NCBI RefSeq assembly: GCF_988243305.1
Contig: NZ_OZ547136.1
Direction: 5' to 3' (one strand)
Length of the DNA: 64,000 nucleotides
The notes beneath the pieces were generated by a model. The model was not told where the DNA came from and searched no databases. It saw only the letters and a program-made list of their open reading frames with translations. Both the position numbers and the translations under genes were made by a program. Positions 10,407 through 13,662 of the stretch are shown one piece after another (positions within the stretch are counted from its first letter, which is position 1; the number at the start of each line of letters is the position of its first letter).

Positions 10407-11390
10407 TTACCTTCCCGCTCTCCAGGCCACATCCCGCAGCGCCGATCGCGCAGCCTCACTGATACCACCTAACTGAAAAAATCCGTGGATAACGCCAAGG
10501 TAGCGTTGGCAGGTGCATTGCACTCCTTGCCCTGTCATGCGGTGATACAACGCTTCACCTTCATCGCAAAGTGGGTCGTATTCAGCGGTAATGATATGTA
10601 CAGGTGGCAAGCCATTGAAATCATCGCGCCAAAGAGGGCTGGCTTCAGGATGCCTGCGTTCAATGCCTGGCAGATACATCTCAAAGCCGCTCAGTAAAGT
10701 GTCGCGTGTGATGATGTAATCGTGACCATTGCGTATGTAGCTTTCGAAATGCGCAGTCGCATCAAGCATGGGATAAATTAAGATGAGTTGTGCCGGTTGC
10801 CACTCGCCAGCACGCTTTAATCGCAAAGCAGTTACCAGCGCCAGATGTCCGCCCGCACTGTCACCGGCAAGAGTTATCCGTTGTTTATCAACGCCGAGTC
10901 GTTCGGCGTGTTGCCAGACTAATTCTGCACCTCGTTGTGCATCATCATGGGCGGCGGGGAAAGTCTGTTCCGGTGCCAGCCGATACTGGACGGCAATAAC
11001 CCGACATTGCCCGTAATAGGCTAACTGGCGCAGCTGGTTGTCGTGAGTTGCGAACCCGCCGCTAACAAAACAGCCACCGTAGTAATAAATTATCGTCGGG
11101 AGTAATGTCGGGGCATTCAGCGGTGACACTATTCGTAAGATCATCCCTTCAAGTTCGATAGTCTGAATATCTACCCGCGTTTCTGTCTCACCCGCAAGGA
11201 CAGCGCTGGCGATATAGCCCTCCCTGCGCTGCGCAATACTTTGTTGACGCGATGAGGGGCGACCCGCAGCGATAAACTCTTCGACTAACTCTGCAATTCC
11301 TTTTTCCAGTGCCATAGTAGAACTCATTTTGCTGTATGAATGTACAGTTTTATACACCCGTTTTTGCTGGATGGATACAGGGAAATTCAC
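10407..11390 (-). CDS. Alpha/beta-hydrolase fold-3 esterase/lipase (Aes-like)
   Basis: YGGCFVSGG oxyanion region and GDSAGG nucleophile-elbow motif; 327 aa. Confidence 0.8.
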   Translation of the reverse strand: MNFPVSIQQKRVYKTVHSYSKMSSTMALEKGIAELVEEFIAAGRPSSRQQSIAQRREGYIASAVLAGETETRVDIQTIELEGMILRIVSPLNAPTLLPTIIYYYGGCFVSGGFATHDNQLRQLAYYGQCRVIAVQYRLAPEQTFPAAHDDAQRGAELVWQHAERLGVDKQRITLAGDSAGGHLALVTALRLKRAGEWQPAQLILIYPMLDATAHFESYIRNGHDYIITRDTLLSGFEMYLPGIERRHPEASPLWRDDFNGLPPVHIITAEYDPLCDEGEALYHRMTGQGVQCTCQRYLGVIHGFFQLGGISEAARSALRDVAWRAGR

Positions 11391-11412
11391 GGGCGTGAAA
11401 AATCTGGAAAGC

Positions 11413-11435
11413 GCCTCGCAAATGTAAAGACAAAC
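11413..11435 (+). promoter_or_regulatory. Shared upstream motif (TGGAAAGCGCCTCGCAAA) copy 1, upstream of higB-like gene
   Basis: Motif recurs at ~13086-13109 and ~13525-13548 upstream of yiiE and yiiF. Confidence 0.4.
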
Positions 11436-11543
11436 CCGGCAGAGACGTGGTTTTGCTGGAGCACTATCAGTAAGCTAGTGGTTTCAAGGGTGCGTCAATG
11501 ACGTACAAAAAGGATTGTTACTCTAAGCCAATGGCGTATAATT

Positions 11544-11855
11544 ATGCTCTTCATCGAAACGGAAATTTTTACTGAAGATGTTCAAAAACTGCTGACCGAC
11601 GATGAATTCAGTCGTTTTCAGTTTTTCCTGGCCTTGAATCCTGACTATGGTGAGGTAATACCTGAAACTGGTGGGTTAAGAAAGGTTCGATGGGTGTCAG
11701 GAGGAAAGGGGAAACGTGCTGGTGTCAGGGTTATTTACTTTCATCAGGTTAAACATTATGAGATCAGATTACTGCTTATTTATCGTAAGGGTATTAAAGA
11801 TGATCTGTCTCCCCAGGAAAAAGCAATGCTCCGGTTGTTAAATACGAGGTGGTAA
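11544..11855 (+). CDS. RelE/HigB-family type II toxin
   Basis: 103-aa ORF; toxin-first gene order; stop of toxin abuts start of downstream HTH gene. Confidence 0.65.
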   Translation: MLFIETEIFTEDVQKLLTDDEFSRFQFFLALNPDYGEVIPETGGLRKVRWVSGGKGKRAGVRVIYFHQVKHYEIRLLLIYRKGIKDDLSPQEKAMLRLLNTRW

Positions 11856-12146
11856 ATGGATAAGGCACTTTTTGAGCGGTTGACTCACAGCATGGCCCAG
11901 ATGAATGAAATTATTGAAGGAACGCGACACCCTTCACGGACTTTTGAAGTTGATGCTATGAAAATCAAAGAAATACGCCGCGCTTCAGGGTTGTCACAAT
12001 CTAAATTTGCCGAACTTATTTCCGTAAGCGTAGACACGTTGCGTAACTGGGAGCAGGGGCGACGTTCACCGACTGGGCCTGCAAAGGCTTTGCTGCGAGC
12101 GATTGCCAATGATCCGCAACATGTGCTGCAGGCACTTAACCGTTAG
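11856..12146 (+). CDS. HigA-like XRE-family HTH antitoxin
   Basis: 96-aa ORF with HTH (SQSKFAELISVSVDTLRNWEQGRR); immediately follows toxin. Confidence 0.65.
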   Translation: MDKALFERLTHSMAQMNEIIEGTRHPSRTFEVDAMKIKEIRRASGLSQSKFAELISVSVDTLRNWEQGRRSPTGPAKALLRAIANDPQHVLQALNR

Positions 12147-12222
12147 AGGCATGGTTATGCCATACAGAAAGCACCAGCATTCAGAACTCCTATGAAAGCG
12201 GCATAGTGCCGCCTGCTCAGGA
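12146..12222. repeat. ~80-bp repeat copy B (degenerate hairpin)
   Basis: Direct repeat of 10328-10406 (gccatacagaaagcaccagcattcagaactcct.tgaaagcggcatagtgccgc). Confidence 0.7.
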
Positions 12223-12230
12223 GTTTTACT

Positions 12231-12443
12231 ATGACCCGTAATCGTGCTGAACGTCGCCATCATATGGCGCGATTAAAAAAAATCCGCTGCCGTTATCGCA
12301 CTGCAGGCGATGGAAGCAAAAAAGCATCAGGTATTTGCTTTCGTACTCCCTGTATTTGTTCTTGTTGGATGTGTGGGCATCGACGCTATCATAATGGTCC
12401 CCGCGTATCGGAAATTCGAGCAAAAGCACGCTATGCGAATTAA
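12231..12443 (+). CDS. Hypothetical small basic Cys-rich protein (70 aa)
   Basis: ATG with SD (caggag) contributed by repeat copy B; no recognisable family. Confidence 0.3.
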   Translation: MTRNRAERRHHMARLKKIRCRYRTAGDGSKKASGICFRTPCICSCWMCGHRRYHNGPRVSEIRAKARYAN

Positions 12444-12504
12444 GGGAAAATGATGAACTATTTTAAGGAAGCACATTTTTAGAACTCTTAACAGGAGACT
12501 AAAA

Positions 12505-12783
12505 ATGTCCACGCTTAATACGCGTAAAGATAGGGATCGTAATGGTAAAGCGAAGCTGCATAATCATTCAGGGATCCCAACACTTACAGGTAAATGGCGT
12601 CACCCTTCAATGGATTGTTGGGTAAACTACAGTACACCGGGCGATCATGAATGGAAGCGGCTCTATACTACGCTTCGCCGTCGCGCAGATGATCGACGCC
12701 AATGTCATCGGGTAATGCAGGGGGATGATCCAGAAGGAATCGTCTGGTTCCCGGACTGTTATCCACAAATTTACTACTACTAA
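12505..12783 (+). CDS. Hypothetical protein (92 aa)
   Basis: ATG preceded by AGGAGA at optimal spacing; no recognisable family. Confidence 0.35.
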   Translation: MSTLNTRKDRDRNGKAKLHNHSGIPTLTGKWRHPSMDCWVNYSTPGDHEWKRLYTTLRRRADDRRQCHRVMQGDDPEGIVWFPDCYPQIYYY

Positions 12784-13201
12784 CAATTAAAGACCGGTTG
12801 GTGCGGCACTGACCGGTCAGTTATGAATGGTAGATTTCACCTTAAACCCTGGTGCGGTAAAGCTGCTGACTTTTTCGGGTACACCATCCTGATGAAGCAA
12901 ATGAACACCCAATCAAAAAAATATTCTTGAATATAAAATATTTATAGCACCCATAATTCATCCTTATTATTTATTGTTTCTTTTCTGTAGATGTGTCCCC
13001 GCTTAATTAAAAGTAATAAACCATCCTGGGTTATTACTAAACCATTTTTGAGTAACAATTGAAATAACTGCAACTGTTACATTATCTTTGGATGCCGTCT
13101 CGCAAAAACAAAACAGCATGCAAAAATCCGCTTTTTTTAAATGATTTTTCGGCGTAATTTTCGCACATACATTAATGAGTAATATATGTAAGGTGGTGGT
13201 A

Positions 13202-13420: not shown

Positions 13421-13662
13421 CAAAAATTTTTCATTCTTGAATATAAAAAAACAGATGCCCTTATTCTGGTATTAATACAAGGCTGTTTTACTTGAACTTA
13501 TAATAACTGCAACTGTTACATCATATCTGGAAAACGCCTCGCAAAAATAAAAAATGATGCGTAAATGAGCTTTCTTTAAAGATTCGGCAAGGGTACTTTT
13601 CTCTCCATAGATTCAAAAATGATATTGGCGAGATATTTATGAACTCTCTGGCAGGTATAGAT

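Follow-up and report, generated by a model that had tools for sequence, protein, structure and literature searches.

The described systems closest to the locus analysed here are the com-mom genes of phage Mu, the coat-replicase/lysis region of the RNA phage MS2, type II toxin-antitoxin (TA) operons and the protein T5.055 (=ORF053) of phage T5. Mu Com is a zinc-finger protein of 62 amino acids (aa) which activates the translation of mom by opening a hairpin at its start site, and Mom is a DNA-modification enzyme. In MS2, ribosome-mediated translational coupling operates through start-site hairpins. The locus in question consists of two small open reading frames (ORFs), ORF1 and ORF2 (Table 1), in a stretch of 64,000 nucleotides (nt) of contig NZ_OZ547136.1 (RefSeq assembly GCF_988243305.1), hereafter called the window. 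The comparative analysis demonstrated that ORF1 and ORF2 form a self-contained, horizontally mobile two-gene cassette, and that a conserved pair of RNA hairpins, reported here as new, accompanies these genes.

Each of the described systems shares some features with this cassette. Like com-mom, the cassette has a small basic Cys-containing protein encoded upstream of a gene whose start lies in an RNA stem-loop, but ORF2, unlike Mom, is a 92-aa basic protein devoid of a catalytic signature. As in MS2, the downstream start codon is paired with a sequence located inside an upstream reading frame, so that translation of this frame is expected to open the hairpin; unlike in MS2, the upstream element is a mini-ORF of 2-10 codons between small genes, and the coupling is predicted from structure only. 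Type II TA operons, e.g. the RelE-like/NadS pair of the window (11544-12146), are likewise small, two-gene, co-directional, located in variable islands and plasmids, often lost and often decayed. In contrast to them, the ORF1-ORF2 pair matches no toxin or antitoxin family, has no recognisable DNA-binding fold, has a structured spacer between its genes, and both of these genes also occur alone. As in type I toxins, the Shine-Dalgarno (SD) sequence of ORF1 is sequestered by mRNA structure, but both ORF1 and ORF2 encode hydrophilic, basic proteins and not small hydrophobic membrane peptides. Finally, T5.055 shares with ORF1 the motifs RRHH..R.K and TPCxCSCWMCG, but the T5-like proteins are 91-104 aa long with an extra acidic C-terminal tail (..SNDEFDGFVG..EDERPDL), and their genes lie in the early region among tRNA genes and lack both an ORF2 partner and a significant SD hairpin.

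The region is 100% identical to that of Escherichia coli strain C4 and belongs to the segment located between fabY (yiiD) and yiiE-yiiF-fdhE. A preliminary description of the sequence had reported a 70-aa, highly basic and Cys-rich ORF and a 92-aa ORF, placed between a repeat (copy B) and an AT-rich gap preceding yiiE. Coordinates and sizes were confirmed exactly, copy B abuts ORF1, and the gap has a guanine plus cytosine (GC) content of 30-35% (35% at 12784-13201, from ORF2 to yiiE, and 30% at 12900-13201, compared with 51% for the whole window). ORF1 contains 19 Arg and Lys residues versus 3 Asp and Glu, as well as 6 Cys, and has an isoelectric point (pI) of 11.1; the pI of ORF2 is 9.3. Both products are hypothetical proteins in RefSeq (WP_000197769.1 and WP_001315112.1), and ORF1 is missing from the annotation by the Prokaryotic Genome Annotation Pipeline (PGAP) of several genomes of identical sequence. 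The chromosomal site falls in the variable fabY-yiiE segment, with no phage structural genes near ORF1.

The dN/dS ratio (nonsynonymous to synonymous substitution rates) and conservation at the protein level across genera demonstrated that ORF1 and ORF2 are real protein-coding genes under purifying selection. Indeed (i) dN/dS ranged from 0.10 to 0.23 in unsaturated comparisons (ORF1, 0.10-0.16; ORF2, 0.14-0.23), with 0.10-0.11 for ORF1 and 0.18-0.23 for ORF2 in the comparisons with Edwardsiella tarda, Edwardsiella ictaluri and Kosakonia (dS 0.25-0.48), and 0.13 and 0.23, respectively, between E. coli and Klebsiella spallanzanii, (ii) homologues of both proteins, sharing 40-60% identity, are encoded in other Enterobacterales, and (iii) the exact window alleles of ORF1 and ORF2 are each found in at least 1000 contigs, versus fewer than 10 contigs for each frameshifted allele. 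The objection that these ORFs might lack conservation as coding sequence, foreseen in the preliminary description, fails in view of these ratios, cross-genus homologues and contig numbers. Missing PGAP annotations of ORF1 and frameshifted database variants could be taken as signs of spurious ORFs in a region that is non-coding or holds RNA elements only. That reading is extremely improbable and is excluded by the conservation analysis, against it being the dN/dS values, the protein identity held across genera, the invariant residues in alignments of 39 and 48 sequences and the vast excess of intact over frameshifted alleles. Phase variation at the ORF1 runs A8 (12275-12282) and A6 (12318-12323) was considered and rejected, frameshifted variants being rare compared with intact alleles and the length of 553 nt being kept in 14 of the 15 full-length copies of a spread sample. 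Frameshifted database variants of ORF1 read into a 47-aa hydrophobic ORF in its +1 frame (12310-12453). As a candidate type I toxin, this ORF was rejected because it is not conserved in other genera, and for the same reason its existence probably results from the Cys codons of ORF1.

Homologues of ORF1 and ORF2 are adjacent and in the same order in Salmonella, E. tarda, E. ictaluri, K. spallanzanii, Citrobacter, Mixta, Kosakonia, Atlantibacter and Huaxiibacter, and on 20 Salmonella IncFIB plasmids. Eleven loci, representing 10 genera, carry an ORF1 homologue immediately 5' of an ORF2 homologue, as does a contig of unverified origin (L003; L numbers designate the loci compared). In 13 of the 14 loci with the long form of ORF2, this gene has ORF1, or what remains of it, as its neighbour, and at least 10 genera are represented. 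The spacing between the two genes is 41-66 nt in most loci, with no overlap, and the pairwise divergences of ORF1 and ORF2 are correlated (Mantel r = 0.82, p = 2e-4; 11 loci), which reflects co-inheritance without reshuffling and does not in itself prove an interaction. The flanks vary by genus and include Dnd genes, SNF2 helicases, CbtA/CbeA, sugar-metabolism genes and unknown proteins of 195-236 aa. These neighbours were rejected as a functional clue, since they differ between genera and mostly belong to no family. The earlier suggestion that the two ORFs are further cargo of an islet holds insofar as they are part of the variable fabY-yiiE segment, but not insofar as they would be cargo of the TA module, the pair being present in about ten other genera and on Salmonella plasmids without hydrolase or TA genes.

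Several variants of this arrangement were encountered. In Lelliottia, the pair is present with a nonsense codon in ORF2, in Leclercia ORF2 is accompanied by a mere remnant of ORF1, and in a metagenome-assembled genome ORF2 is frameshifted. In Mixta sp. L023, two tandem ORF2 paralogues (4001-4234 and approximately 4293-4547) follow a single ORF1 homologue, and the ORF1-ORF2 spacer is unusually long (212 nt). In the group formed by Edwardsiella, Kosakonia and Leclercia, a conserved protein of 211-236 aa (MxRKHTPFTSLSRRKRRAKTLKIK..) is encoded 5' of the pair; it belongs to no Pfam family, is split by a frameshift in two genomes, and may be the third gene of this variant of the cassette.

The preliminary description recognised no family for either protein. 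This stands for ORF2, which is unmatched in libraries, but not for ORF1, which is a member of the phrog_4499/T5.055 family according to profile and motif. Indeed, ORF1 is matched by the phrog_4499 profile of PHROGs (E = 8e-14), its residues 3-67 aligning with positions 6-73 of the 88 of the profile. By tblastn, an ORF1 homologue was detected in 446 records of phages, which are for the most part T5-like phages of Salmonella and Escherichia, with an ORF1 coverage of at least 80% in 441 of these records. In phages AKFV33 and T5, the protein is 103-104 aa long and ends in an acidic tail, and the domain homologous to ORF1 occupies its first ~67 residues; over these 67 residues, the T5-like proteins are ~50% identical to ORF1. 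ORF1 differs from these phage-borne members in being chromosomal here, and homologues are also carried by conjugative Klebsiella plasmids. In the alignment of 39 sequences, R9, R19, G34, C43, C45, C48 and G56 are invariant and H11, T39, P40 and C41 nearly so. The family consensus, RAxRRHHxxRxK...TPCxCSCWMCG, thus comprises a conserved N-terminal RRHH helix, three invariant Cys (CxCxxC) and a nearly invariant fourth one, and this Cys cluster probably binds a metal, presumably zinc. No match to ORF1 at E <= 1 was obtained in Pfam, NCBIfam or PADLOC. The literature search on T5.055, on the two WP accessions and on phrog_4499 returned nothing, and a PIRT-Seq paper mentioning nadS was set aside, as it concerns a different K-12 locus.

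By its sequence, ORF2 represents a rare family described in no library. Neither ORF2 alone (at E <= 1 for Pfam, NCBIfam and PADLOC) nor the 48 family members matched Pfam, NCBIfam, PHROGs or PADLOC, and an exhaustive profile search of 1.84 billion representatives retrieved 62 clusters only (E <= 1e-3). The family is characterised by an N-terminus MSxFNxxxDR...G (motif MSxFNTRKDRxxxGK), a C-terminus PxWWxRLxxTRPRR...GxDPDGxxWPxxxKPHxYYW, and the nearly invariant residues P47, R60, G73, D75 and P87 in the 48-sequence alignment. Paralogy between ORF1 and ORF2 was rejected because of an hhalign probability of 0.1%. No relatives of ORF2 were found in viral contigs in the alignment scans that were completed. 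The sole record labelled as a phage that encodes ORF2 is L003 (OR851001.1, 'Salmonella phage S.Kent 1-2-1', 3578 nt), which is flagged UNVERIFIED_ORG; its ORF1 and ORF2 homologues share 97% and 92% identity with Salmonella cluster representatives, and because of this near-identity to Salmonella chromosomal proteins it is probably bacterial DNA and not phage. Distant members of the ORF2 family lie on contigs too short for gene context.

Concerning the RNA features, the preliminary description had noted good SDs for both ORFs. The motif AGGAG is indeed canonical in both cases (12219-12223 for ORF1 and 12493-12497 for ORF2, each 7 nt 5' of the ATG), but the ORF1 SD is base-paired in a hairpin and the ORF2 AUG is paired with an upstream sequence. 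The ORF1 hairpin is two-tiered (AACUCCU..GCGGCA-UAG-UGCCGC..AGGAGUU), with a minimum free energy of -21.5 kcal/mol in the window (z = -4.5, none of 200 shuffles being as stable). All 16 loci folded, among them ORF1-alone loci and a Klebsiella plasmid, have an equivalent hairpin 5' of the ORF1 homologue, its 3' arm holding the SD at a distance of 1-9 nt from the start codon, and z ranged from -3.1 to -6.9 in the eight loci tested against shuffles. The stems vary by locus (ACUCC/GGAGU, CCUCAUA/UAUGAGG, ACUCCGGG/CCCGGAGU; inner stems GCGGCA, GGGGC, GCGCGGU). The formal covariation test covers the inner helix: in an alignment of 12 sequences, 85.7% of its cells are paired versus 71% in shuffles, and its covariation score is 0.364 versus 0.127 (none of 500 shuffles as high), four of seven pairs changing on both sides. 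Upstream of the T5 homologue, no significant hairpin was predicted (z = -1.0). The SD hairpin was rejected as a dispersed repeat, as the window holds two copies only (the inner-stem core AAGCGGCATAGTGCCGC occurs twice), and as an intrinsic terminator, since no U-tract follows it in most genera.

Between the two genes, a putative mini-ORF is present, whose last codons (CAU-xxx-stop, in the window CAU UUU UAG) constitute the 5' arm of the hairpin pairing the ORF2 AUG. E. coli and K. spallanzanii differ in this mini-ORF by three synonymous changes only. Similar peptides are encoded in other genera, namely MNYFKEAHF in K. spallanzanii, MRYIQEHW in Salmonella, MYLLQEHF on a Salmonella plasmid and MHHDT(I/T)GEHL in Citrobacter, Atlantibacter and Lelliottia, and only MR in the Edwardsiella group; the consensus ..Y(F/I/L)(K/Q)E(A)H(F/W/L)-stop derives from the window and the intergenic regions of L021, L005, L033, L025, L038 and L043. 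The ORF2 AUG is paired in all seven intergenic regions folded, through differing stems (window z = -3.0). L021, L005, L033 and L025 have the same topology (UUUUUAG/CUAAAAA, GGUAAC/GUUACC, GUAAGU/GCUUAC), and in L008 and L027 the 5' arm is instead located around the mini-ORF start. Across genera, z ranged from -3.0 to -0.6, some folds being individually weak. Neither of the two hairpins matched Rfam, in which the only hit was a sub-threshold Thr_leader (E = 0.44) at 13040-13140, outside the cassette. Downstream of ORF2, a canonical intrinsic terminator occurs in most other genera at the position of the stem-loop of the window, in which a terminator-like site lies further downstream (12854-12866).

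Taken together, the SD hairpin and the AUG-pairing hairpin suggest throttled and coupled translation. The proposed order of the cassette is SD-sequestering hairpin, ORF1, mini-ORF/AUG-occluding hairpin, ORF2, and stem-loop or terminator. No promoter-like site was found between 11543 and 12231, and in E. coli the cassette, with no detectable sigma-70 promoter of its own, would be read through from the upstream toxin-nadS operon. ORF1 translation would be throttled, as its SD would be locked in the stable hairpin, and ORF2 would be translated only after ribosomes leaving ORF1 or the mini-ORF had melted the AUG-pairing hairpin; as a consequence, both proteins would be made together at a low level. 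These proteins could be small, accessory, nucleic-acid-binding proteins of phage or plasmid origin with a joint role, most plausibly in conflicts of phages or plasmids with their hosts. We consider this reading, i.e. a mobile cassette for two small basic, putative nucleic-acid-binding proteins with gated and coupled translation and a role in such conflicts, about evenly balanced between right and wrong; within it, the biochemical function is deduced from composition and context only, and the gating from conserved structure.

A number of observations weigh against this reading. ORF1 is found without ORF2 in T5-like phages, Vibrio, Photobacterium, Klebsiella indica and ~130 plasmids (mostly conjugative ones of Klebsiella pneumoniae), and Pantoea, Rouxiella and Mixta have a short form of ORF2 (76-83 aa) without ORF1, so that the two need not act together, and co-inheritance alone can yield their correlated divergence. 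The outer, SD-containing helix is not scorable by column because MAFFT shifts the register, two ORF2 hairpins do not differ significantly from shuffled sequences (z = -1.3 and -1.5), and the fold of L008, of the Edwardsiella group, has a z of -0.6. Sequence-profile searches of PDB gave chance-level matches only for ORF1 and ORF2, the AlphaFold2 models are poor (predicted local distance difference test score of 63 for ORF1 and of 71, with a single confident helix, for ORF2), and Foldseek matched the ORF2 model to nothing in PDB.

Other explanations of the pair were weighed on the same evidence. The pair could be a new TA or abortive-infection module, in which one of the small basic proteins would be toxic and be neutralised by the other, with T5.055 as a phage decoy antitoxin or counter-defence. 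In accordance with this, the genes are co-directional, co-inherited, tightly restricted in translation, frequently lost and decayed, and represented in phages for one partner only; a RelE-like/NadS pair adjoins them in the window, and elsewhere they reside in islands with Dnd, SNF2 helicase/AAA/peptidase S8, CbtA/CbeA, RES-type and reverse transcriptase genes. Nevertheless, we judge such a module rather unlikely, because neither protein matches PADLOC, Pfam or NCBIfam (PADLOC-DB 2.0 anti-phage models: 0 families for ORF1 and 0 for ORF2), both partners stand alone in many genomes or plasmids where a toxin without antitoxin should not be tolerated, decay can strike either gene, and the genes do not overlap, being 41-66 nt apart in most loci. 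Beyond the gene arrangement, no defining feature of TA systems was found, nor any of known defence systems. That ORF1 and ORF2 are unrelated phage- or plasmid-derived accessory genes, neighbours by inheritance with no functional coupling, would agree with the occurrence of each gene alone in many contexts and with two families lacking detectable mutual homology. It is improbable given the conserved intergenic architecture of mini-ORF and AUG hairpin and the 13 of 14 long-form loci, in at least 10 genera with differing flanks, in which ORF2 accompanies ORF1 or its remnant.

A circuit resembling Com/Mom, in which ORF1 would be a small zinc- and RNA-binding protein that opens the ORF2 hairpin or autoregulates its own SD hairpin and ORF2 would be the effector, could account for the location of a small Cys-cluster protein gene directly 5' of a gene with a hairpin-held start codon. 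It could also account for the presence of the SD hairpin at loci with ORF1 but no ORF2, in agreement with an autoregulatory role of this hairpin. This circuit is unlikely, however, as the family and PDB searches gave no similarity to Com (no direct comparison with the Com sequence was made), the Cys spacing of ORF1 is CxCxCxxC and that of Com CxxC...CxxC, and the T5 homologue is not preceded by a significant hairpin. A more specific proposal, which we likewise regard as improbable, is a two-component conflict system in which a Cys3-metal, RNA-binding ORF1 would gate the production or activity of ORF2, a DPDG-YYW effector, via the hairpins, and in which ORF1 alone would have been captured as a counter-measure by T5-like phages, Vibrio cassettes and Klebsiella conjugative plasmids; were it true, ORF2 would be a new family of small effector proteins.

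The mobile cassette with gated, coupled translation remains our preferred reading. Two hypothetical proteins now become a defined and testable unit, comprising a mobile cassette, a T5 relative, an undescribed family and a hairpin pair. If the hairpins work as proposed, the cassette would be a compact natural combination of SD sequestration and mini-ORF coupling, and it would offer a first handle on T5.055, which is conserved in hundreds of T5-like phages. The kind of element is not surprising, small accessory genes being common in variable regions.

Table 1. Coordinates of the cassette, of its RNA features and of neighbouring or related elements (positions in the window, unless an L number is given).
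Feature	Position	Strand	Remarks
ORF1	12231-12443	+	70 aa, very basic; phrog_4499/T5.055 N-terminal family
ORF2	12505-12783	+	92 aa, basic; undescribed family
Two-tier hairpin	12183-12227	+	ORF1 SD in 3' arm; inner stem GCGGCA-UAG-UGCCGC
Mini-ORF (putative)	12450-12482	+	MMNYFKEAHF-stop; weak SD of its own; starts 6 nt after ORF1 stop
ORF2 start-codon hairpin	12469-12516	+	CAUUUUUAG pairs with CUAAAAAUG; ORF2 SD in inner stem-loop
Stem-loop 3' of ORF2	12792-12818	+	GACCGGUUGGUG...CACUGACCGGUC, no U-tract
Repeat copy A (98 nt)	10311-10408		direct repeat, 88% identical to copy B
Repeat copy B (98 nt)	12128-12225	+	last 19 nt of nadS, ORF1 5' leader and SD hairpin
27-nt motif	11402-11428; 13086-13112; 13525-13551		ATCTGGAAA.CGCCTCGCAAA..; upstream of toxin gene, yiiE and yiiF
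79-nt repeat	13063-13141; 13502-13580		precedes yiiE and yiiF
211-236-aa protein	L008 4245-4880; L024 2953-3663; L027 2882-3554; L030 3139-3809		
Short-form ORF2/IS3 segment (2285 bp)	L017 2656-4940; L018 2656-4940; L019 155-2437		

The history of the locus was reconstructed in E. coli. Of 5426 complete genomes of this species, 1269 (23%) carry the intact pair, without exception at the same site, and ~1185 further genomes keep the first ~50 nt of ORF1 only. In strain 53 and in O157:H7, this remnant results from a deletion extending from the A8 run of ORF1 (~12281) to ~12675-12679 in ORF2. In K-12, a larger deletion extends from codon ~39 of a gene coding for 617 aa (8385-10238) to the last ~12 codons of ORF2, the ORF2 part being read in a different frame in the fusion; PGAP annotates the 52-aa ORF thus formed as a pseudogene, and the fabY-yiiE region of K-12 is thus the deletion scar of a larger ancestral segment. 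The repeated deletion of the pair indicates that it is dispensable for growth of E. coli. Furthermore, in O157:H7 the ORF1 remnant directly follows the 617-aa gene and the block of hydrolase, toxin and nadS is absent, and K. spallanzanii has the order hydrolase-toxin-nadS-ORF1-ORF2 between fabY and fdhE. From these arrangements and from the deletions in E. coli, it follows that the pair has long resided in the variable segment as a dispensable element, and that it is a module distinct from the TA pair.

The short form of ORF2 was also found in association with a mobile element. Indeed, a 76-aa form is encoded 118 nt upstream of the orfA/orfB genes of an IS3-family insertion sequence, within a 2285-bp segment, and its own SD likewise lies in a hairpin. 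Since this segment recurs, at 99.9% identity, in a second chromosomal context, the short-form ORF2 may travel with the IS3-family element.

Upstream of the cassette, the 98-nt direct repeats bracket a block encoding an alpha/beta-hydrolase, the RelE-like toxin and nadS, and a perfect palindrome of 41 nt is located at the end of copy A, just behind the hydrolase stop codon. The absence of exactly the bracketed block from O157:H7 suggests that the hydrolase and TA genes were gained or lost by recombination between these repeats. The 617-aa ORF (+ strand) is intact in the window and contains CKSAKDRT, a CX5R-type motif which we take to resemble that of the SopB/IpgD phosphoinositide phosphatases; the ORF gave no match above threshold in Pfam and no sequence match in PDB. 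On identical sequence, PGAP splits this ORF into a pseudogene and a 'transposase'; it is represented by two ORFs in O157:H7, and K-12 keeps ~39 of its codons. Only one good promoter-like site was found in the region (11515-11544, TTGTTA-16-TATAAT, matching at 10 of 12 positions), and its end lies 1 nt upstream of the ATG annotated for the RelE-like toxin gene; either the toxin mRNA is leaderless or its start or promoter is other than annotated. Lastly, the 27-nt and 79-nt repeats preceding the toxin gene, yiiE and yiiF may constitute a shared operator or promoter for ribbon-helix-helix regulators.

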